Source of the DNA: a virus
Taxonomy: Duplodnaviria > Caudoviricetes
DNA: 64,000 nt
Reading direction: 5' to 3' (one strand)
IMG/VR virus record: IMGVR_UViG_3300047160_014545
Coordinates: 1 to 64,000 of that record
Translations under genes and position numbers: made by a program
Notes under the pieces: generated by a model
Databases searched by the model: none
Told to the model about the DNA's origin: nothing
What the model saw: only the letters and a program-made list of their open reading frames with translations
Part shown: positions 1 through 58,018 of the stretch, in pieces
Layout: each line of letters opens with the position of its first letter
How positions within the stretch are numbered: the first letter of the stretch is position 1

Positions 1-498
1 AGGTGGAGGTGGTGGCGGAGGTGGAGGTGGAGGTGGAGGTGGAGGCGGAGGTGGTGGCGGCGGTGGTGGCGGTGGTGGCGGAACCGGCTGATGAATGGGT
101 ATCCCGGAGCCCGTGCGCGTAATGTCCGGTGCTAGCGGCACCTTCCGTTGTGGCGGCGGGGGTGTGGTGCTCGGAACATAATAAAGATGTCCGGTAGAAC
201 CGAAATTTGAGAAGGTTGGCGGTGCCAGTGTATCCTGCTCGGTTTGAGCGATGAGTTTCCCTTGAAACCCCAGATATTGATATTGCTCGAGCACCGAATG
301 CCCAGTCACCAGCGGCAAGCCCGCCGCCAAGAGATTGCCGGTGGCGGTGTCGCTGATGTCGAGCACCCATGTTCCCAGCGGCTCGCACCATCGCATCAGC
401 AGCGAATATTGAATGCCGCCAAGCGAGATCGACTGCCGGAATGGGCCAAATGGACGGCTCGGAACCTCAAATGCCTGAACCTTTGTGCTCGATGCCAT
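1..498 (-). CDS. Baseplate plug-like protein with C-terminal polyproline extension (partial, runs off the left edge)
   Basis: Manual translation from the ATG at 498 (TGATG overlap with the upstream stop): MASSTKVQAFEVP...RWCEPLGTWVLDISD...GLPLVTG...LEQYQYLG...PTFSNFGSTGHLYY, a typical myovirus baseplate small-protein pattern. At least 27 consecutive Pro codons follow, up to base 1. Absent from the ORF track because it is truncated. Confidence 0.7.
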   Translation of the reverse strand, partial: MASSTKVQAFEVPSRPFGPFRQSISLGGIQYSLLMRWCEPLGTWVLDISDTATGNLLAAGLPLVTGHSVLEQYQYLGFQGKLIAQTEQDTLAPPTFSNFGSTGHLYYVPSTTPPPPQRKVPLAPDITRTGSGIPIHQPVPPPPPPPPPPPPPPPPPPPPPPPPPPP

Positions 499-7048: not shown

Positions 7049-8586
7049 GCCATCATACCTGCAAAAAGCGCTGCCAGACCGGAAGTAATAAATCCGATCA
7101 AGGCCCGGTTGACAGTGATCGCGACATCCACAGTATGGACTGCGCCCGCTAGTTTTGCTGCGACCTGGATCAGCGGCGAGCGCCGTGCCGCGCGGTCGGC
7201 AAGCGCTTGGTCGGCCACTGTCGGGGCCCAGACGTAATAGCCTTTGGTGAGATTGTCGCCTTGCTTGATGCTACCAAAGCCGGCCGAATTCCACACACCT
7301 GGCGCCAACAGTCCATTGGTGACGGCTTGCGTCAATGACGTTTCGACATTGTTGGTGAGGATTATGACACCCGCATCGGTCTGCGGTATTTTTGGCGCAT
7401 CATAAAGCAGATTGAAGAGACCCGTTTGGATGTAGTTGGCCATCCAATCGGTACCCCATACTTCATCGATGTAGAACCCGCCTGCGGTCTTGCCATTGAC
7501 GATGATCGATTTGCCAACCGAAATCTCAGCCAGATAATTATAATTGTTGAGATCGAGATTGTCCGCGGCGGTCGACCCGAGAAATTCCGGATCCACACCC
7601 GGCTCGATCTGCCACATAAAGGTGATGGCGGTATTGCTGCCGGTAAAATCGACCGTACAACCGCGGGCGAAGAGTGAGGTTACCGCATAAGGCGTGGTGG
7701 TAGAATATTGCACTGCCGAACGCTTGTACCCAGCAGCTCGCAACAAAGCACCGATCGAGGTCGTGTCCGGCGAGAAAATCGCCGCCGCATCATTTGTCGT
7801 GACGCCCTGCATGTGTTTGTTGTCGGAACCTTCGACAAACCCAGCCACCGCGAGGTAATCATTGCTGGTCACCGTGACTGTCGTCGCCCATGTCATAAAA
7901 TACCAATAGGTGCGCGCCCCATCGAGAATGATGACCGCCTCTAGCGGCGTTTCGGCAGCAATCCCGGCAATCAGCGATTCCGCCGTCGTCGAACTCATTT
8001 GCAGCATGTTGGAAAGATCGGTGCCGGTACCGGCCGATGTCAAATAAGTGACCGCCGAGGAGGGTCCAGTGCTCGTAGTGCTTATGATGAATTGAACACC
8101 ATTCCATAGACAGGTCGCGCTGCCGGTCAAAGCTGAGGTAATTATCGAGGCCACACCATTTAGATTGGTGATACCGGATAGATCCAGACCCGTGACATTG
8201 TGCGCGACACCGTCGATAACAACGTGAAAGCTGCCGTCGGTGATCGACGTCCAATTGCTCAGCACTTGTTGCGCGGCGCTCAACGGGCCGCCGACATTGA
8301 TGCCCGCCGTCGCTGACGACGCCCATCTGCCAATATAGAGGGTATGCGGTTGTGGCGATTGGTCAAAGAACAGCACCGCCGCCTTATATTCAGGATCATC
8401 AATAGTGAAGTCGCCGGCGACTGCTGAGAGGCTGTTGTAAGTTCGAATGCGCTCGAGCACATCGATCACATTGCTGTCACCAACAATCAGCAGGGTGTCA
8501 AAATTAGCGGCTGGCGTTGCTGTCGGCGCCAGTGTCACCGTAACATTGATAAACCGGTTTACCGGCAAGCCGATCGATTGTGCCAT
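7045..8586 (-). CDS. Contractile tail sheath protein (DUF3383-like)
   Basis: LPVNRFINVTV.L.P.A....NF..LLI.G.S.VID..ERIR.Y......DF....PEY.AA..FF.QSPQP..LYIGRW; C-terminal KIPQTD.G and R.AR.SP.IQVA.KLAGAVH. Confidence 0.9.
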   Translation of the reverse strand: MAQSIGLPVNRFINVTVTLAPTATPAANFDTLLIVGDSNVIDVLERIRTYNSLSAVAGDFTIDDPEYKAAVLFFDQSPQPHTLYIGRWASSATAGINVGGPLSAAQQVLSNWTSITDGSFHVVIDGVAHNVTGLDLSGITNLNGVASIITSALTGSATCLWNGVQFIISTTSTGPSSAVTYLTSAGTGTDLSNMLQMSSTTAESLIAGIAAETPLEAVIILDGARTYWYFMTWATTVTVTSNDYLAVAGFVEGSDNKHMQGVTTNDAAAIFSPDTTSIGALLRAAGYKRSAVQYSTTTPYAVTSLFARGCTVDFTGSNTAITFMWQIEPGVDPEFLGSTAADNLDLNNYNYLAEISVGKSIIVNGKTAGGFYIDEVWGTDWMANYIQTGLFNLLYDAPKIPQTDAGVIILTNNVETSLTQAVTNGLLAPGVWNSAGFGSIKQGDNLTKGYYVWAPTVADQALADRAARRSPLIQVAAKLAGAVHTVDVAITVNRALIGFITSGLAALFAGMMA

Positions 8587-26639: not shown

Positions 26640-27179
26640 CTAGTAATTCGTGTCAATGCTGATCTCCCCAATGCCATTGGGGTCGGGCGGGCCATTGAAG
26701 CGGCAATTAGTCAGCGCCACTGTGCTGCCGCCGGTGGCGCTGGCCTCGAAGCCGCCCTGCACATGATCAGTGCCAAAGACACCACCGCCGGTGCTCGCTG
26801 CGATCCACAGATTCACGGCGCCGAATTTTGTCGGCTGGCCGAATATCGGCACCAAGATGTAGCCTTTTTTGACGACGTCGATTTCGCCAGCCGGCGGCAG
26901 CACTGCGGCACCAAAGGCGATGGCGCCAAAATTCACCGCACTGACCTGCTGAATCGGGAAGGGCCGCGCGGCAATGCCATCGATTGTGGTGACGCCAGTG
27001 TCGCTGGAGAGCACACCGCGATAGGAATTATTGGCGGTGACACCAATAACCGCCTGACCAAAGAACTGCACCGGATTGGTCGTATCGTTTTTACCGGGCT
27101 CGATTGAGACCGGGTGCGAGCGATTGACGTCTCCGGCAAACCCGGCATTCATCCGGAACGGGAAAGCCATGTATGGCAT
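26640..27179 (-). CDS. Head decoration/cement protein
   Basis: AFPFRM.AGFAGDV.R.HP..IEP...V.K.GY..V...A.K.G.V..W...GGFE; immediately upstream of the capsid gene. Confidence 0.8.
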   Translation of the reverse strand: MPYMAFPFRMNAGFAGDVNRSHPVSIEPGKNDTTNPVQFFGQAVIGVTANNSYRGVLSSDTGVTTIDGIAARPFPIQQVSAVNFGAIAFGAAVLPPAGEIDVVKKGYILVPIFGQPTKFGAVNLWIAASTGGGVFGTDHVQGGFEASATGGSTVALTNCRFNGPPDPNGIGEISIDTNY

Positions 27180-27208: not shown

Positions 27209-28450
27209 TTAATTGATGCGGCCGCCAGCCCAATGCTGGTCTAATTGCGCTTGCAAATCGGCCGGCGTCTGCGGGCGGTTCCGGGTTGCAGCGGGGATAT
27301 TCTGGCGTCCGACTTGCTGGGCAGCGGTATTCAATGTCCGCTTCTGCATTGCCGCAGCTTTGAACACCACCCGCAACTGATCATTGGGCAAGCGCCCGCT
27401 GTCGAAATGCCCGGGCGAGCCCGAGGTCAGAACATCAATCGCCGCCCGCATTTCCGGACCCGAGGCATAAGCCCCGGTCAATGCCCGGCGGCGCAGATCA
27501 AACATCGCTCCGACGGTTTCTGCCGGTTTGGCATTGCGGTTAAACGCTGGCAGGCGGATCCCCGGATTGAGGATTTCGGCGAGCGCTACGGTTTCCTGAT
27601 GAGCGTCGACAAACAGTGCACTGTCATGAGCTGTGCGGGCGCGGTCGCCGGTGCCTGGCGGCGCCTCAAATTCGAGCTCGCCCAGGATCTCGCGATTAGC
27701 CTCCATGGGTGCGGGCTCGGCATTGAAGGCGTCGTCAAACCGCTTGCGGTCGTCATCCATGCGGCGGCGGGCATCGTCGTCATAGCGGCGATAGCCGTCC
27801 TCTTCGTGCCGGCGCATGGCGTCATCCATGCGCCGCCAGTCTTCCTCGAGGCGGCGATGGCGGTCTTCCTCCATACGCCCGCGAGCATCATCGAGGCGGC
27901 GACGAGCATCGCCTAGATGCCGTCGGGCGTCCTCTGCATGCCGGCGACGATCCTCCATGCGCCGATCGTCGTGCCGCCGGTCGTCATGCCGGCGCCGGTC
28001 ATCGTGGCGGCGGTCTTCCATGTGCTTGCGCATGCGGTCGAGATGCCGTCTGCGGGCATCGTCCATGCGCTTGCCGCGGGCGTCATCGGCGCGGCGGTCC
28101 CGGGCGGCGTCTTCGTAACGCCGCCGGCGATCCTCGTAGCAGCGGTCGTACCAGTCGTCTTCCCCTTCGCCTTCGGCGCGCTGCTCGACCTCTTCGGCCT
28201 CGGCTTCGGCCAACACCTCAAGGTCGGCGCCCAATTCCTCGACCTGGCGCTCCAGCGCCTCCATTCGAGTTGCGACCTGTTCGCCTTCCTCCTGGTCCTT
28301 CTCGGCAGCCTCGGGCAAATGCACGTGCACGTGCTGGTGCTCGCCCTCTTCGCCCTCTTCGGCTTCCTTCTCGATCTCCTCCAGCTCAGCCGCATCACGC
28401 GCGGCAAATGCTCGCCGAACCAAGTTCTGTAACTTGCCACGTGCGGCCAT
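27209..28450 (-). CDS. Scaffolding protein with an Arg/Asp/His low-complexity core
   Basis: Starts MAARGKLQNLVRRAFAARD after a GAAAGGG RBS; acidic segment, HQHVHVHL, RRxDD repeats; C-terminal EIL.PGI..P...R..AL..A...F..AA...N...P....W, typical of the scaffold tail. Confidence 0.75.
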   Translation of the reverse strand: MAARGKLQNLVRRAFAARDAAELEEIEKEAEEGEEGEHQHVHVHLPEAAEKDQEEGEQVATRMEALERQVEELGADLEVLAEAEAEEVEQRAEGEGEDDWYDRCYEDRRRRYEDAARDRRADDARGKRMDDARRRHLDRMRKHMEDRRHDDRRRHDDRRHDDRRMEDRRRHAEDARRHLGDARRRLDDARGRMEEDRHRRLEEDWRRMDDAMRRHEEDGYRRYDDDARRRMDDDRKRFDDAFNAEPAPMEANREILGELEFEAPPGTGDRARTAHDSALFVDAHQETVALAEILNPGIRLPAFNRNAKPAETVGAMFDLRRRALTGAYASGPEMRAAIDVLTSGSPGHFDSGRLPNDQLRVVFKAAAMQKRTLNTAAQQVGRQNIPAATRNRPQTPADLQAQLDQHWAGGRIN

Positions 28451-28504
28451 AGCGTTGCCCTTTCTTGACCTTCTCAACGAAACCGAAAAAATGAACCGCT
28501 TCTT

Positions 28505-29158
28505 TTACTTGGCGCGGTTCAGACCAAGCTCCCCTGCAGAGAGGTGGAGATGAATATGTCTGATACGGCGGCGCTGTACTGCCGCAAGAATTACTGGCGG
28601 CATGTTATTGTCGTCATCGCCAATTGAGCAGCGCGGGCCACAGCGGGCACTATCGACGAGCGCTATGTGATTGCCGACAATATTGGTCTGCGCATAATGG
28701 CCATCGCCCAATTTCTTGTAATCGGCACCGTATCCGCAGCTGACTTGCCGCTTGCCCTCCATAATCGCTTGAATGGCTTCCTCGTCCTGAATTACGAGGT
28801 CGGCAAACAGCAGCGAGTCTTCGATGCCCTCGCCGCGGTGCACATGCTGGGCATTGCCCATGGCATAGCGCCGCCAGTTGCCGGGGTTGACATCCTCGCT
28901 AGGATGATCGTTGACGATCGGTGCGCCTTCGAACGAAGCAATCGTTTGCGGGCGGAACACCTCTTCGGGTTCGCGCTCAACCTTGATGTAGCCATTGGGC
29001 CCGGGCTCAATCGGCGGGTCATTCGGACCAGCGCGGATTTCGTTTGGCCCATAGATTTGCAACCCGGTACGAGCAATTGGCACATCAAAGCAGATCAATG
29101 CTCCCGATGCGGTGCGCGCCCGCTTTGGACCGAGTTGTGCGGTGGTGTAGAACTTCAT
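28505..29158 (-). CDS. Prohead protease (DUF2213-like)
   Basis: G.LIC.DVPIARTG.Q.Y...R.PEEVF.P.TIASFEG.PI..DHP...V.P.NW...A.G.AQ.V.RG...L.ADL.I.D..AI...VSCGY.A...GNHIALV..ARCGPRCSIGD. Confidence 0.9.
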   Translation of the reverse strand: MKFYTTAQLGPKRARTASGALICFDVPIARTGLQIYGPNEIRAGPNDPPIEPGPNGYIKVEREPEEVFRPQTIASFEGAPIVNDHPSEDVNPGNWRRYAMGNAQHVHRGEGIEDSLLFADLVIQDEEAIQAIMEGKRQVSCGYGADYKKLGDGHYAQTNIVGNHIALVDSARCGPRCSIGDDDNNMPPVILAAVQRRRIRHIHLHLSAGELGLNRAK

Positions 29159-30971: not shown

Positions 30972-31736
30972 TTACGCGGCCCGCCGTTCGGGCAAAATGT
31001 CAGGAATTACCGGCAGTGGTGTGCAGCGACAGTTTGGGAAATTGCCGGCGTGCCCCGTCATGTTGTCGAGGGTTGGGGGCTCATCCCAACGCACGAATTT
31101 CCCTTCCATGGTCCGATGGCTAGGCCTGACGCGCGCATCCCGCACCGTAAGCCAGCGATACCCAGCCGAGCCGACATATTCGGCGCGCGCCTGGGTTAGG
31201 CTGCTCGAGGTCCGTGCCACCTCGGTGCGCGCGATCAGTGTTGCGCGGTTGACGGTGATATCGCCGAGCCCGTGTATTTCGGGCACAAGTTCGGCTGCTC
31301 GCTTCCCGGCAAGCAAGCCCTCGATGGTGAGCTCGTGCACCCGCTGCGCCGCTTCGAGCGGCAGCGAGGTAATCAGATCCACCTGCTCGTCGAGTATGTC
31401 GCGAAACAATTGGCCCGTCGGCGCGTTGGCTATTTCAAGCCGCAAAGCCCGGGACATTTGCTGCGCCATCGTCGCCCAGGCCTTGGCGTCGCGGCGCTCG
31501 ACATCTTGCAGCATGCGCAACCCGGTGGTGCGCGCCCAAGGGCGGATCAGCTCTGCATATCGAACAAGAGCATTCTGGACCAAGCTGTCGAAGAGCGGAT
31601 CCTCGAGCGAAAAGCCATTGAGGATCTCAGCAACATGACGGGCAATCGCCCGCAGCCGTCGCGCGTATTCGGTATCGGCGCGGCGTACCTTGGCCCATGC
31701 CGAACGCTCGGCGCGGGTGTTCTGTTGTGCTGGCAA
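30972..31736 (-). CDS. Phage Mu F-like (SPP1 gp7) minor head protein, short form without toxin domain
   Basis: NRA.LIARTEVAR.S..LTQARA...GS.GY.WLT..D.RVRPSH..M.G.FV.WD.PP.LD..TGHAG.FPNCRC. Confidence 0.9.
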   Translation of the reverse strand: MPAQQNTRAERSAWAKVRRADTEYARRLRAIARHVAEILNGFSLEDPLFDSLVQNALVRYAELIRPWARTTGLRMLQDVERRDAKAWATMAQQMSRALRLEIANAPTGQLFRDILDEQVDLITSLPLEAAQRVHELTIEGLLAGKRAAELVPEIHGLGDITVNRATLIARTEVARTSSSLTQARAEYVGSAGYRWLTVRDARVRPSHRTMEGKFVRWDEPPTLDNMTGHAGNFPNCRCTPLPVIPDILPERRAA

Positions 31737-35588: not shown

Positions 35589-35945
35589 AGAAGCGTCCCT
35601 ATGGGCTCACGAGCGTTTCGGGATTTAGCGACAATCGAATGCCGGCCCTCGCCCTCATAGAAACTCATTCGCTCACGAATATCGGAAATATATTCGGCTT
35701 CTTTCTCGACCAAGATTGCGTTGCGGCCCGTGGCCAGGGCGGCGATACCTGTTGTACCTGATCCAGCGAAGCAATCGAGCACCAAGCCATCCTTCGGCGT
35801 AACGAGCGGCACGAGCCATGCCGAAGCGGGCAAGTGTGCTTGTCAGATGATACGGCGGGTCAGTCACGATGCTGTCCACCACCACGCCCTCCGCGACAAG
35901 GCGCGGGATCACTTCGAGCATATCTCCGTGCTCGAGGCGAATCAT
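35585..35945 (-). pseudogene. Internally deleted, frameshifted beta-class N4/N6 DNA methyltransferase
   Basis: Frame A: MIRLEHGDML...DSIVTDPPYHLTS; frame B: WLV.LVTP..GLVLDCFAGSGTTG.AA...GR.AIL.EKE.EY. The two halves are joined out of frame with the central region missing. Confidence 0.8.
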
Positions 35946-37555
35946 GCGACGTTGAGCCGTTCGGCATCCATGTTGCGCCAGTTCTCTTCGAGGTGGTCCA
36001 CCAAACGTAGCCTGGGGCGCTCTCCGGAGGCGCTGGAGCGCTGTTGTTGCCCGGGGGCTAGTTGGGTAGCCTCCTGGCCTTCCCCCCTCTTAGCGGGCTC
36101 CCCAGGGCGCGGCAGAGCATGTTGCGGGCCACCGCCAAATGCACCTAGCTCTTCGAGGCCCGGCGGAGCCGGCGGCGGAGCCGATTTGAGCTCCTCGATG
36201 TATTCGTCGGTAATGTTCGAGAACACCCCGGTCTTGCGCGAAGCCTCCCGCAATTCCTCGGCGGCGATGGCGAGATTGATGATTCCGTCGGCAAGCGCGT
36301 TCGAAACTGCCTGCGTGGTTTGCACCGAAATTTGCGCCTTCTCGGCTTCCTGCAGCTGCCACAGCGTTTTGAACCGGAAATCAAAATTCTCGGGAATGGC
36401 GATGCCTTCGCTGCGCGCCATCATTTTGTAGATTTTGTTGACCGGCTCGTGCAAGTGCCTTTCTTGCTGCGAATTAATCCCGTCGTAGTACATTCGCAGG
36501 TCGCTCTCGCCGGTCGAGTTGAGACCAGCGGGCGACATCCCGAACAGCCGCACCAACGGGATCTGCAACGCTCCGGCTAGCTGCTGCCCGAGTTGCAGCA
36601 GACCATCCGACATCCCGGTAAAATTGCTTTGATTGACCGACCCGAAATCGTCTTCGCCATCGAGCATCGTCACACCCTCGACGCCCTGGAACTTGCGCAT
36701 CATCTCGACGTAGTTGATGACACCGCGAAGCTGGTCGTCGCCGGCATAGATGATCTGACGCATTCCCTTGATTTTAAGCCACCGCAAATATGATTTATAT
36801 ATACTCTGCGAAAGGCCCTGGGTAGCGCTGTCAAAACCGATCATGCGGTCGTAGAGGCGCTCGAGCACCGAAATCGACCACATGTTTTCCATGACTCGCT
36901 GCGCATAAGGCAGCCGCACACCCTCCATGCGGAGCACCCGCGAATAATGCACTTGCTGCCCGGTGAGTGCGGGAGCCAACGCCAGCACATGGTAATATTC
37001 CGGCATCCCGAGGTCGGGCCCAAATTCTTTGACCAGGTTGGTGAGCGAAGGCTCGACCATCCAGCGATCGAGCACCGTCAAACCGCGGAAGTCGTTTTTG
37101 CCCACGGTCTCGATGCGCAAGGGTTGGGAGACGTCCTGGCCTTCGATCAGCATTACAGCGATAGCCCCGCCATAAAGCCGGCCCCACTTGATGGTATCGT
37201 TGATTTCCGGCCACAGGTTCAGCCGGCGCGCCAAATTCTGTAATTCCTCGATGTCGTCGGGCGGCATCGTCGAAGTGATTTCGATGCCCGCTTTGGTCAT
37301 GTCATCGGCGACGAGGTCAATCGCCACCCCACCCAACCAGCTACCGCGATGAATCCACTCGAGCAACGTTCTGTTGCGAGTGATCGGGTTGAAACCATAG
37401 GTGCTCTGGCTGAGCGCATTGTTGGTACCGACACCAAGCGACAGGCCGAAATTTTGAAACGAATCGCGGAATTGCGCGGAGCCGAAATAGCTCTGCATTT
37501 TTTCGTTTTGCTCGGCGAGCGCGCGAGCGTCAGCGATCGGATTCGGATCAGCCAT
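35942..37555 (-). CDS. Portal protein (DUF1073 / anti-CBASS Acb1-labelled family)
   Basis: DSFQNF...LG.GT.N.LS.STYGFNP.TRNR.LLEW..RGSW.GG.A.D.VA.DMT..G...W.RLYGG...FGMSPAGLNSTGESD.R.YYD.I. Confidence 0.92.
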   Translation of the reverse strand: MADPNPIADARALAEQNEKMQSYFGSAQFRDSFQNFGLSLGVGTNNALSQSTYGFNPITRNRTLLEWIHRGSWLGGVAIDLVADDMTKAGIEITSTMPPDDIEELQNLARRLNLWPEINDTIKWGRLYGGAIAVMLIEGQDVSQPLRIETVGKNDFRGLTVLDRWMVEPSLTNLVKEFGPDLGMPEYYHVLALAPALTGQQVHYSRVLRMEGVRLPYAQRVMENMWSISVLERLYDRMIGFDSATQGLSQSIYKSYLRWLKIKGMRQIIYAGDDQLRGVINYVEMMRKFQGVEGVTMLDGEDDFGSVNQSNFTGMSDGLLQLGQQLAGALQIPLVRLFGMSPAGLNSTGESDLRMYYDGINSQQERHLHEPVNKIYKMMARSEGIAIPENFDFRFKTLWQLQEAEKAQISVQTTQAVSNALADGIINLAIAAEELREASRKTGVFSNITDEYIEELKSAPPPAPPGLEELGAFGGGPQHALPRPGEPAKRGEGQEATQLAPGQQQRSSASGERPRLRLVDHLEENWRNMDAERLNVA

Positions 37556-55200: not shown

Positions 55201-55270
55201 TTCAGGGGGATCCTACCAAAGCTGAACCTGCGGCATAAGGCGCATCGTTGCTTGAGCCATCGCCAGAGGC

Positions 55271-55465
55271 TCATTCGCTCGCCTGCCGGCGCCGCCGGCT
55301 AATGCCAAAGCGGCCGCGGCCTCGGGTATCTGTCGCCCGACTATCAGAACCGCCGTGCTCCCGCACATACTGATCGAACGGCATCTTGGTGCCGTCAGGC
55401 AAAACGATGTTCGTTTGGTCCAGGTACTGCAAAAAGAAACGGTCGGGCCCGTCATTATCAGCCAC
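55271..55465 (-). CDS. Small protein directly after the ART gene (candidate antidote)
   Basis: GGAGGAG RBS, GTG start 3 nt after the ART stop; DRF......NIVL motif. Confidence 0.55.
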   Translation of the reverse strand: MADNDGPDRFFLQYLDQTNIVLPDGTKMPFDQYVREHGGSDSRATDTRGRGRFGISRRRRQASE

Positions 55466-55467
55466 AG

Positions 55468-57669
55468 CTACTCTCCTCCTTTATCCATTTCGCATTCCAT
55501 ATATTTCTTTTGCCTATCGAAATGCGTGATTTTCAGAAACACGCCGCGATTAAAAAGGATCTCGCTTTCACCAACGTTGGCTACCGTAGTTCCTGGCATG
55601 CCGGCAGGAGCGGTGATTTTGATGGTCATGCCGCCCCAACTTTTCATAGGGTTCGGATCAAGGCTGGTTGAGACAAAACCCCGTTCCTCCCAGCGCATTC
55701 CGACCGTGCCGATGGACATCAACGCCGCCTGATATGGTCCCTTGACCCGGCGCCACAAGGTCATCGGCAAAGGCGTTTTCGCCTGGCCCAGCCACTCGTC
55801 AAGAGCCTTCACACGGGTGTCCGTGCAATCTACCTGCTGGCGCATGCAATCGTTCATATCGGTATAACCGCTTCCCTTATAGCTGCTCAGAGAAGACTGC
55901 TGATCAGGCGTTATTTCTGGTCGATGCGTTTCGAGCTTGTGATAGGCGTCCGAATAACTTCCTGCAGCTATGGAGCTCTCGATCTCGGCGACCGGCACCG
56001 GCGCTGGTTTTGGCATTGGTGGCGGTTTGGGGGGCGGAGCGGGTGCAACCGGCTTCACGGGAGCCGTGACATCGGCACTAAGAATGGTATTTCTTCTATC
56101 TGCTAATTTGGTCGCGAGAGATTGCTTCGCAGCCGAATCGCCAGGACCCCATTGCTCAACTACAGAAAGAATAGCCGCCTCTGAAATTTGCAGAGACTTC
56201 TTTGATTCCTGCAATTCCTGTGGTGTCATATCGCCATAAAGCGAAGCAGCTGACGGATTCTTATGCGGGTCTCGCATCGTTGTCCATTCCGATGCCTGAT
56301 ATCCGAAGGCGTCTCCCTTCGGGGTTCCCCCAGCGCGGTAGAGCAGAGCGCCGCCAAAATCCAGCGGCAATAACTTTCCGTTTTTATCTGCCCCGACATT
56401 ATCGCCGGTCAGCCCGACTGCGTCCCAATTGGCCAGCCATGCGTGGATCGCGAAATCCTTCTTGGCCTGCGCCCGCTGCTCGGGCGTGAGTTCCTTCAGG
56501 TTGTCTTTGCCGAGGTCGACCATCTTGGTCGCCACTCCGAGCTTACCTTCGGGCAACGCCACCGGGTGATAATCCAGAGTGCTGCCCCCAGCCAGCCGGA
56601 AAAGAGCGGCAGCGAGCATCTCATTCGCGGCGTGGGCATCGGTCTTAGAGAACTTCACATAGTATTTATTCCCTGATGCGTCCTCGAACACACCGCCCGG
56701 GTTCGAACCCTTTTGCGGCCCAACCTGCTTGAGATTGGCGAAGTTCAAAATCGGCCCGATCGCCGAGTTGGCTCGTTCAACCGGCGAAAGCTCTTTCTTG
56801 GGCGTCGGCACCTCCGGCTCTGGCTTGGCCGCAGGAGCCTCTGCGGGGACTGCTGGCGCTTCGCCGCCGGGCTTGCCCTTGAACTTGCCGCCGGGCCCGC
56901 GCGGATGGAGCGCTTCAAACGCTATATTGAGCTGCTGCTGAGTCGTACCCTGAACGATTCCTTTTTCCTTTGTCCAAAGCTGCCACTTTCCGGCATTCGG
57001 GGGATCAATCCCGATAACGAGGGATTCAGTTCCCGCGTTGTTGACCCACCGCATGGCCTGGCCGCCCTGCCACTTGGTGCCCTCCATATTTGGCAAAACC
57101 GCATTCACCCCAGGCGGAGGTGCTAGCGGCGTCTTTCCGGCGGCTGGTTCCTTTGCTTCAGGCTTCGCCGCCGGGGCCGCTGCGGAGGCCGCTGGAGCAG
57201 GGGAAGGCTTTTCGTGATGGATATGTACCTGTGGCTCGTTAGGGTGCTCCAGCAAGCTCTGGAGAGCCGCTAGACCCTTGCCAGTTTTCTCTACTCGATA
57301 GCCGGGTCCGGCACTCACCCATTTGAAAGACCCCGACGGGATATATTTAGATTTGCCAGAGGTTGGCGGGTCAAACGAGAAGGTGAGCGTTTTCCCGCTC
57401 GGATGCGCAAAAGTCTGCTGTCCCTTTTGATGTTGAAATCCGAGTTCCTGTAACAGGTTTGTAATTTTCGAGCTTAGTGAGTAGGGGGCGCCCTTTGCAG
57501 CTGCCGGCGTTTCCTTTCCTACCGCTGCCGCTTCGCCGCCCCCCTCGCCTGCCTTGACAAACTGCCCACCCTTGCCGGTGCCCTTGGCACCGCGCGGATG
57601 CTCAGCTTCCTTGAATTCATCGCGGAAATAATACCTCTTGTGTCCGATATGGATCCCGATGGTTAGCAT
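55468..57669 (-). CDS. Multidomain effector: HPRG..G.F motifs, HipA/PI3K-like kinase fold, VIP2-type ADP-ribosyltransferase
   Basis: Kinase: GSNPGG......YYVK, ANE.LAA.L, AWLANWDAVG...DN, LDFGGAL. ART: Y.G.GY..MN..MR, TLWRRV, GFVSTS, GESEILF (R-STS-ExE). Confidence 0.85.
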   Translation of the reverse strand: MLTIGIHIGHKRYYFRDEFKEAEHPRGAKGTGKGGQFVKAGEGGGEAAAVGKETPAAAKGAPYSLSSKITNLLQELGFQHQKGQQTFAHPSGKTLTFSFDPPTSGKSKYIPSGSFKWVSAGPGYRVEKTGKGLAALQSLLEHPNEPQVHIHHEKPSPAPAASAAAPAAKPEAKEPAAGKTPLAPPPGVNAVLPNMEGTKWQGGQAMRWVNNAGTESLVIGIDPPNAGKWQLWTKEKGIVQGTTQQQLNIAFEALHPRGPGGKFKGKPGGEAPAVPAEAPAAKPEPEVPTPKKELSPVERANSAIGPILNFANLKQVGPQKGSNPGGVFEDASGNKYYVKFSKTDAHAANEMLAAALFRLAGGSTLDYHPVALPEGKLGVATKMVDLGKDNLKELTPEQRAQAKKDFAIHAWLANWDAVGLTGDNVGADKNGKLLPLDFGGALLYRAGGTPKGDAFGYQASEWTTMRDPHKNPSAASLYGDMTPQELQESKKSLQISEAAILSVVEQWGPGDSAAKQSLATKLADRRNTILSADVTAPVKPVAPAPPPKPPPMPKPAPVPVAEIESSIAAGSYSDAYHKLETHRPEITPDQQSSLSSYKGSGYTDMNDCMRQQVDCTDTRVKALDEWLGQAKTPLPMTLWRRVKGPYQAALMSIGTVGMRWEERGFVSTSLDPNPMKSWGGMTIKITAPAGMPGTTVANVGESEILFNRGVFLKITHFDRQKKYMECEMDKGGE

Positions 57670-57967
57670 CCTGCGCCCTCTTCAGGATTCCCCAAACGTT
57701 ACCGTAAAGTGCCGACCGGGAGGTGTCTACCGTCTCTTTGAAGTTATGATAATCGATCCTCATAATTAGCGCAAACACTGCGTCTGCAACAGTCCGCCGC
57801 GGAAGAGATATTCGATAGCGATAATCGGCATCTGGCGTGAAGCTGATTTTTGCCCTTGGAAAAAGTTTCTGAAGATCTCGGCGAAAACGCCCGCGCACCA
57901 TTAAATTATCAGAGTTGTTTTTGTCTTCGACGACCGAGATAAAGCCACGCGTGGCGAACACCCACAT
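57617..57967 (-). CDS. Conserved hypothetical protein (MW.F...GF.S.V...L.VR.R...DY.YR...IDY.NFK)
   Basis: Recognisable motif; immediately upstream of the effector. Confidence 0.7.
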   Translation of the reverse strand: MWVFATRGFISVVEDKNNSDNLMVRGRFRRDLQKLFPRAKISFTPDADYRYRISLPRRTVADAVFALIMRIDYHNFKETVDTSRSALYGNVWGILKRAQDANHRDPYRTQEVLFPR

Positions 57968-58018
57968 TTTTATTTTTCCTTTCTGCCGCATTTATTTTTA
58001 GCGGCGTGCGCCACAGCC

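Follow-up and report, generated by a model that had tools for sequence, protein, structure and literature searches.

The window analysed here comprises 64,000 nucleotides (nt), positions 1 to 64,000 of the IMG/VR record IMGVR_UViG_3300047160_014545. It comes from a soil phage whose whole contig has 81,624 bp. We studied P0001, a protein of 733 amino acids (aa) encoded on the minus strand by the open reading frame (ORF) 55468..57669, as read from the ORF list and its translation. P0001 joins in one chain a protein-kinase-like domain and a domain of the ADP-ribosyltransferase (ART) type. That it is a two-enzyme effector seems very probable. With less assurance, we favour a fuller interpretation, in which P0001 bears a short tag, is loaded into the capsid and is ejected as a kinase/ART effector. 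Having no anchor domain, it belongs to the 'polyvalent' class of phage cargo effectors as a free protein.

From the N- to the C-terminus, P0001 presents a leader, a tag, a domain A, a domain B, a second tag, the kinase-like domain, a Pro-rich linker and the ART domain. Its ATG is preceded by a GAGG Shine-Dalgarno sequence at 6-7 nt.

The kinase-like and ART domains

The protein-kinase-like domain spans aa ~305-530 (56080..56757, minus strand). Its model was folded with 40 homologues. It reaches a predicted local distance difference test (pLDDT) of 95 and a predicted template-modelling score (pTM) of 0.91. The top structural match is CtkA from H. pylori (PDB 3akj), with a Z of 14.9, a root-mean-square deviation of 4.1 Å, 209 residues and 19% identity. 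CotH (Z 12.4), PI4KIIalpha (12.3), MavQ (11.9) and HipA (11.2) follow, and then Fam20, RIO and many classical kinases. This structural search was exhaustive: 58 PDB representatives were found at Z>=8, and nearly all of those listed are kinases. The top hits from Foldseek are likewise all kinases. A preliminary description of the locus had proposed a kinase in the middle of the protein, to be checked by structure prediction. The model bears this out.

The residues that the same description had listed (YVK, ANE, WD...DN and DFG) all exist. The domain has a G-loop (GSNPGG), the beta3 lysine K339 in YVK, the alphaC glutamate E350 in ANE, W411 and N414, the catalytic D416 and N424, and the DFG aspartate D437 in LDFGG. 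The catalytic loop has the form NWD-x7-N. Across 41 sequences, G321, K339, E350, W411, N414, D416, N424, D437, G439 and G440 are invariant. CtkA, CotH, PI4KIIalpha, MavQ and HipA share the layout of the beta3 lysine, the alphaC glutamate, the catalytic Asp/Asn and the DFG aspartate. Compared with CtkA and its kin, the P0001 kinase is phage-borne, is embedded in a cargo protein and has no match at the sequence level.

No sequence match to the domain was found in Pfam, NCBIfam, PADLOC or the PDB sequences, and the family profile likewise fails against the PDB. The kinase fold is recognised by structure comparison only, since the sequence libraries gave no kinase family. The earlier label of a HipA/PI3K-like kinase therefore holds for the fold, but not for membership in a sequence family. 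For HipA (PF07804/PF20613) and the PI3/PI4-kinases (PF00454), Pfam gives no hit at E<1 outside the ART domain, and NCBIfam gives none. Neighbouring clusters in the ESM Atlas carry HipA_2 in 46% of members and PI3_PI4 in 12%, which are leads at the feature level only. As modelled, the middle domain is an intact atypical kinase in the fold neighbourhood of CtkA, CotH, PI4KII and HipA. Judging from these neighbours, it most likely phosphorylates proteins.

The ART domain occupies aa 563-733 (55471..55983, minus strand). A Pro/Ala-rich linker, visible in the sequence at aa 531-562 (55984..56079, minus strand), separates it from the kinase. Residues 582-720 match PF03496 (ADPrib_exo_Tox) with E 1.2e-13; the score of 51.3 bits is well above the cut-off of 23.4. 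A second match to this domain is PHROG 802 (Alt-like; E 9e-8). The catalytic motifs consist of R640 (LWRRV), S667-T668-S669 and E701-S-E703. They line up with the R-S-ExE catalytic positions in Lmo0066 and VIP2, and the profile of the family reaches VIP2 (E 2.9e-24), CDTa, Iota, C2 and C3. The VIP2/C2-type ART with R-STS-ExE that had been proposed is thus present, with its residues intact. The ExE motif goes with arginine specificity, as in C2, Iota, ExoS and Alt. Because of this motif, the ART of P0001 most likely modifies arginine.

The kinase domain is widespread in phages. A HMMER scan of 1.84 billion representatives detects it in 4,218 clusters at E<=1e-3 and in 881 at E<=1e-30 (clusters at 50% identity). 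Nearly all these clusters are large phage multidomain proteins. They have almost always 500-7,000 residues, and some show several copies of the kinase. One seven-residue kinase pattern by itself recovers 364 IMG/VR stretches. A metagenome scan with the whole of P0001 returned two short fragments only.

Pfam partners in 41 kinase bearers are ART (21), NUDIX (17), Phage_portal_3 (8), DUF2213 (5), MuF (5) and minor capsid protein 2 (2). Zeta and phosphatase domains also co-occur with the kinase in relatives. Wherever the ART is present, it lies at the extreme C-terminus, often straight after the kinase, as in P0001. In the ESM Atlas, the same fold appears in clusters that are 100% MuF; other clusters combine it with NUDIX, phosphatase, HD or Gad2 plus ART. 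With the portal of this phage as its seed, jackhmmer detects IMG/VR kinase proteins that are fused to a portal domain.

Some relatives belong to cultured phages. Pseudomonas phage Dolphis gp117 and Morganella phage Mecenats66 ORF50 present the kinase and the ART in a single protein of ~1,230 aa. Mecenats66 ORF50 lies just upstream of the terminase genes, and so does the homologue in the IMG/VR locus L007. In Gordonia phage Sixama (L205, MN484601.1 31765..38213), the kinase (gp73) and the ART (gp75, 1,285 aa) are separate adjacent genes, with the 69-aa gp74 between them. The three sit between the portal gp72 and the maturation protease gp79. Sixama gp73/gp75 is an unfused version of the kinase/ART pair within a head module.

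The HPR tag in P0001 and its relatives

The preliminary description had noticed two HPRG..GG[QK]F motifs, and both are present in frame. Tag 1 (ExxHPRG..GGQF) covers aa 18-37, EFKEAEHPRGAKGTGKGGQF (57559..57618, minus strand). Tag 2 covers aa 250-263, AFEALHPRGPGGKF (FEALHPRGPGGKF), at 56881..56922 on the same strand. The form FEALHPRG.GGKF, near-identical to tag 2, is found in P0007, P0009-P0012, P0014, P0015, P0018 and P0019. Homologues show the motif at corresponding positions, so chance does not explain it. None of the other genuine ORFs of the complete 81,624-bp genome contains it.

Tag 1 is preceded by a leader (aa 1-20; 57610..57669, minus strand). It consists of an hHhHh strand followed by YYFRDEF, and it is conserved in homologues. 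The anchor-less homologues P0004, P0007, P0009 and P0014 keep this leader, and similar strands precede tags elsewhere. The JGI annotation calls one of these homologues, P0007, 'HicA-like'.

A back-translated pattern for ExxHPR[DG]xxG[KQ]F recovers more than 116 IMG/VR loci among the matches listed, each in frame and in a long ORF. In its extended form, the tag presents a short beta strand, the motif [DE][FW]xExxHPR[DG]xxG[KQ]F and a Gly/Ser/Pro-rich stretch, with up to six repeats per protein. Phage_portal_3 is present in 17 of 68 tag-bearing proteins. The others carry NUDIX, ART, ART-PolyVal, topoisomerase IB, Zeta toxin, PBECR, LPD3/13, InPase, RelA_SpoT, GNAT, DUF2213 or MuF.

To place the tag, we searched the kinase proteins with the portal, MuF and DUF2213 proteins of this phage. 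In fusions, the tag begins ~0-50 residues past the portal or DUF2213 domain. Lying directly after the anchor, it marks where each cargo module behind a portal or DUF2213 protein starts in these relatives. In MuF fusions, the tag is mostly absent. The proposed tie between the motif and head proteins is therefore supported for portal and DUF2213, where the tag heads the cargo modules, but not for most MuF fusions. At least 17 anchor-less kinase proteins, including P0001, have the tag at aa 17-49. P0001 looks like a cargo separated from its anchor. Stand-alone portal, MuF and DUF2213 genes are all retained in its phage.

The class itself is already known, as polyvalent or head-packaged ART effectors. 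In the papers searched, a large kinase family with no Pfam model and with regular pairing to ART and NUDIX appears to be undescribed. The same applies to the N-terminal position of the tag on a free protein and to the location of the gene, far from the head module. We did not find the HPR tag described in the papers on polyvalent proteins or MuF toxins.

One observation concerns the small genes downstream of such proteins. In L037 (4572-4826, plus strand), the 84-aa ORF downstream of the kinase-ART gene has its own HxH leader and HPR tag at its start (..HVHVNLDAFSESEHPRSHGQF..). So, some small downstream genes may be tagged cargo and not immunity proteins.

Proposed capsid loading and its alternatives

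In the proposed mechanism, a single polypeptide would hold two host-modifying enzymes, an atypical kinase and an ART of the Alt/VIP2 clade, with a conserved tag ahead of each half. The leader and the tag would direct the free protein into the procapsid, where processing could possibly occur. P0001 would then enter the host along with the DNA. There, it would modify host transcription, translation or defence proteins as infection starts. The enzyme activity, the substrates, the packaging and the ejection are predicted. The preliminary description had read P0001 as a packaged and injected double effector. The kinase fold, the ART and the link between tag and head stand; packaging and injection are suggested by comparison only, since some relatives are encoded in head modules or have a portal, MuF or DUF2213 domain in the same chain.

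Several known systems serve for this comparison. Phage polyvalent proteins were defined by Iyer, Burroughs, Anand, de Souza and Aravind in 2017 (PMC5512222), and ARTs were surveyed in 2022 (PMC9503650). Like P0001, polyvalent proteins join several effector enzymes in one phage polypeptide; the kinase and the ART give P0001 the two effectors that the definition asks for. In that class, no protein-modifying domain is commoner than the ART, cargo fused to portal or MuF uses the same domains, and injection with the DNA is predicted. The definition also expects the gene to adjoin late or virion genes, or the protein to be fused to MuF or portal. P0001 shows neither trait, whereas its relatives do. 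The polyvalent kinase clade of 2017 has lost its C-terminal subdomain and occurs mainly in Verrucomicrobia/Bacteroidetes (PMC5512222). The P0001 kinase is without these features and keeps a helical C-terminal lobe.

T4 Alt is packaged in the head and injected (PMC5512222, PMC9503650). It shares with P0001 the R-S-ExE clade of ARTs to which the PHROG 802 match points. Alt has no kinase, however, resembles P0001 in the ART region only and uses a targeting sequence that bears no relation to the HPR tag. This short N-terminal sequence reportedly loads Alt into the capsid. Temperate phages have polymorphic toxins of the MuF kind (Jamet et al. 2017; PMC5576092), which likewise end in a toxin domain of the ART type, are predicted to travel via the capsid and are followed by a small gene. 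They differ in their N-terminal MuF. Here, MuF is a separate protein that carries no toxin, and the immunity role of the small downstream gene is only a candidate one.

Some observations weigh against capsid loading. The P0001 gene is 15.7 kb upstream of TerL and ~16 kb from the head module, within a single long array of same-strand genes. Its surroundings are of DNA metabolism, with an SSB/ParB-methyltransferase block on one side and an IbrA(PAPS-reductase)-ParB-ParB-GNAT block on the other. A scan for promoters and terminators gave no signal above chance by which the expression of P0001 could be timed. Neither Pfam nor the searches with the proteins of this phage gave P0001 a portal, MuF (PF04233) or DUF2213 domain of its own. 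The N-terminal 300 residues (model pLDDT 68) gave no informative match, with Z 6.9 at most in the VIA wide search and nothing at E<=0.001 in BFVD. Our literature searches found no virion proteomics of the cultured relatives and no functional test of the HPR tag. In addition, T4 ModA/ModB and T7 gp0.7 show that enzymes of this type can act unpackaged.

The main alternative is that the same two-enzyme effector is unpackaged. It would be synthesised after entry of the genome as an early or middle product, like T4 ModA/ModB or T7 gp0.7, and would modify host proteins from inside the cell. The tags would then be elements inherited from a junction or linker, and they would play no part in the loading of P0001. 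The location amid genes of DNA metabolism and modification and the lack of an anchor domain fit this view, and the Dolphis homologue likewise sits among non-structural genes. Nevertheless, the kinase family is strongly associated with head modules and with fusions to portal, MuF and DUF2213. Moreover, the leader and the tag are kept in at least 17 anchor-less relatives, which argues for selection. We consider an unpackaged P0001 rather unlikely. The T7 kinase disarms host defences (PMC13645617), and gp0.7 resembles the role predicted for P0001 as a phage kinase for host takeover with a broad anti-defence effect. It is unrelated in sequence, has DPV in place of the DFG that P0001 shows in LDFGG, and is an early product, unpackaged and without an ART (PMC13645617). 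An alternative substrate for the kinase would be a small molecule or a lipid, such as a metabolite or signal derived from NAD/ADP-ribose. In that case, kinase, ART and NUDIX would form a nucleotide-centred anti-defence module. The lipid kinases PI4KIIalpha and MavQ are among the fold neighbours, and NUDIX is the second commonest partner. One bacterial Atlas cluster has NUDIX fused to the fold of P0003, the gene upstream of P0001; another Atlas cluster brings Gad2 (40% of members) and ART together with the kinase fold. Conversely, the top match CtkA, as well as CotH, HipA, Fam20 and RIO, are protein kinases, and P0001 itself has no NUDIX domain. This substrate seems improbable.

Equally improbable, in our estimate, is a toxin-immunity pair, in which the ART (with the kinase) would arrest the growth of competitors or superinfecting phages and P0002 would neutralise it in the producing cell. 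P0002 is an orphan ORF of 64 aa with a GTG start (55271..55465, minus strand). The preliminary description had seen this ORF correctly but placed it 3 nt after the P0001 stop; the spacing from the TAG is 2 nt. An AAGGAGG lies 8 nt upstream of the GTG, and the codon statistics are coding-like. From these signals, P0002 looks translated, and the strong Shine-Dalgarno with the short spacing suggests coupled translation. A tightly spaced ORF of 40-90 aa, alone downstream, follows 17 of 27 relatives that end in an ART and 4 of 24 others (Fisher p 0.0014; the loci are not phylogenetically independent). Most of these predicted ORFs are acidic and they vary greatly, which is usual for immunity proteins. 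MuF toxins also have their immunity genes downstream (PMC5576092). On the other side, P0002 has no relatives in 83 related loci, IMG/VR and a collection of 5.8 billion proteins, except for one weak match in L007, the closest IMG/VR relative (7320-7550, minus strand; 12/37 identical, pairwise E 3e-7). That ORF abuts the ART stop codon on the opposite strand and is convergent to the kinase-ART gene. A single family for the small ORFs after the ART was also considered: a profile made from 16 such ORFs placed P0002 at rank 44 of 5,167 (E 61), and it does not show homology. T4 Alt reportedly needs no immunity protein. An antidote role of P0002 is a hypothesis. The toxin-immunity and the small-molecule or lipid explanations are lesser possibilities, and neither excludes an unpackaged effector.

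Capsid loading of P0001 remains the interpretation we prefer. A bolder version of it is tentative, and we lean towards doubting it. Here, the leader and the ExxHPRxxxG[KQ]F tag would be a portable and undescribed signal for capsid loading or ejection. P0001 would be tag-only cargo, an injected kinase/ART toolkit for anti-defence or takeover. With such a signal, phages could load free enzymes that are not joined to a portal, MuF or DUF2213 protein. The kinase/ART pair delivered by P0001 would come from a family of phage kinases that is very large (at least 4,200 clusters) and uncharacterised. Multi-enzyme phage effectors possibly injected with DNA are known from comparative genomics only, and very few have been bench-tested. 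An abundant phage kinase-like domain with no Pfam model, partnered with ART and NUDIX, is timely, given that the T7 kinase disarms many defences. A tag on a free protein offers a simple test case for a capsid-targeting signal, and cultured relatives exist in Dolphis gp117, Mecenats66 ORF50 and Sixama gp73/gp75.

N-terminal modules, neighbouring genes and genome

Two small domains lie between the leader and the kinase. Domain A (aa 62-142; 57244..57486, minus strand) is of alpha/beta type, with an AlphaFold pLDDT of 70-90. Its best fold match is only Z 6.9. It recurs in P0004, P0009, P0014 and L012. Domain B (aa 185-255; 56905..57117, minus strand) is beta-rich, has a pLDDT >90, gave no informative neighbour in the fold searches and recurs in L012, L013, L006, P0014 and P0015. 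Both domains are modules of variable number among the relatives.

P0003 is the 124-aa upstream gene (57617..57991, minus strand). It had been described as conserved, and it does belong to a phage-wide family; its position is corrected here, as it overlaps the P0001 start by 53 nt. In 11 of the 83 related loci, a homologue lies no more than ~3 kb from the kinase gene. P0003 has no hit in Pfam, PHROG or NCBIfam, and its Atlas look-alikes are mostly viral. On the downstream side, the gene order in L007 is kinase-ART, small ORF, ParB-methyltransferase, TerS and TerL. Inverted repeats flanking P0002, which might explain the opposite orientation in L007, were not found.

The genome is that of a phage, with TerL, portal, MuF, a DUF2213 protein, a cement protein, the major capsid protein and tail genes on one strand. 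The portal protein (35942..37555, minus strand; PHROG 146, E 1e-122) has no C-terminal cargo. The short muF without a toxin, noticed earlier at 30972, is a real gene (30972..31736, minus strand). It matches PF04233 (E 3.6e-20) and PHROG 324 (head morphogenesis), and it has no C-terminal effector. The stand-alone DUF2213 protein of the head module (28505..29158, minus strand) matches PF09979 (E 6e-48). It may be a protease or a loading partner, because elsewhere DUF2213 is fused N-terminally to cargo made of tag plus kinase. A 422-aa protein with no family match follows (27209..28477, minus strand) and is possibly a scaffold. After it, the head module continues with the cement protein (26640..27179, minus strand).

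The IbrA/PAPS-reductase-like gene (minus strand) is called from ATG 55095, and its frame is open for 39 codons further upstream. This extension stops at an in-frame TAG (55213..55215) and has no ATG, GTG or TTG within. A 15-codon ATG ORF (55260..55216) lies ahead of that TAG in the same frame. The alignment of PHROG 2302 to the IbrA-like protein begins at profile position 34, so ~33 N-terminal residues seem to be missing. A non-canonical start, read-through of the TAG or a sequencing error could account for this anomaly.

The two ends of the contig share no terminal repeat that we could find. The contig opens with a run of GGT/GGC/GGA-type triplets (window 1..60, plus strand; AGGTGGAGGTGGTGGCGG...). 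This run is a coding repeat of Gly-rich or collagen-like type that is truncated where the contig ends.

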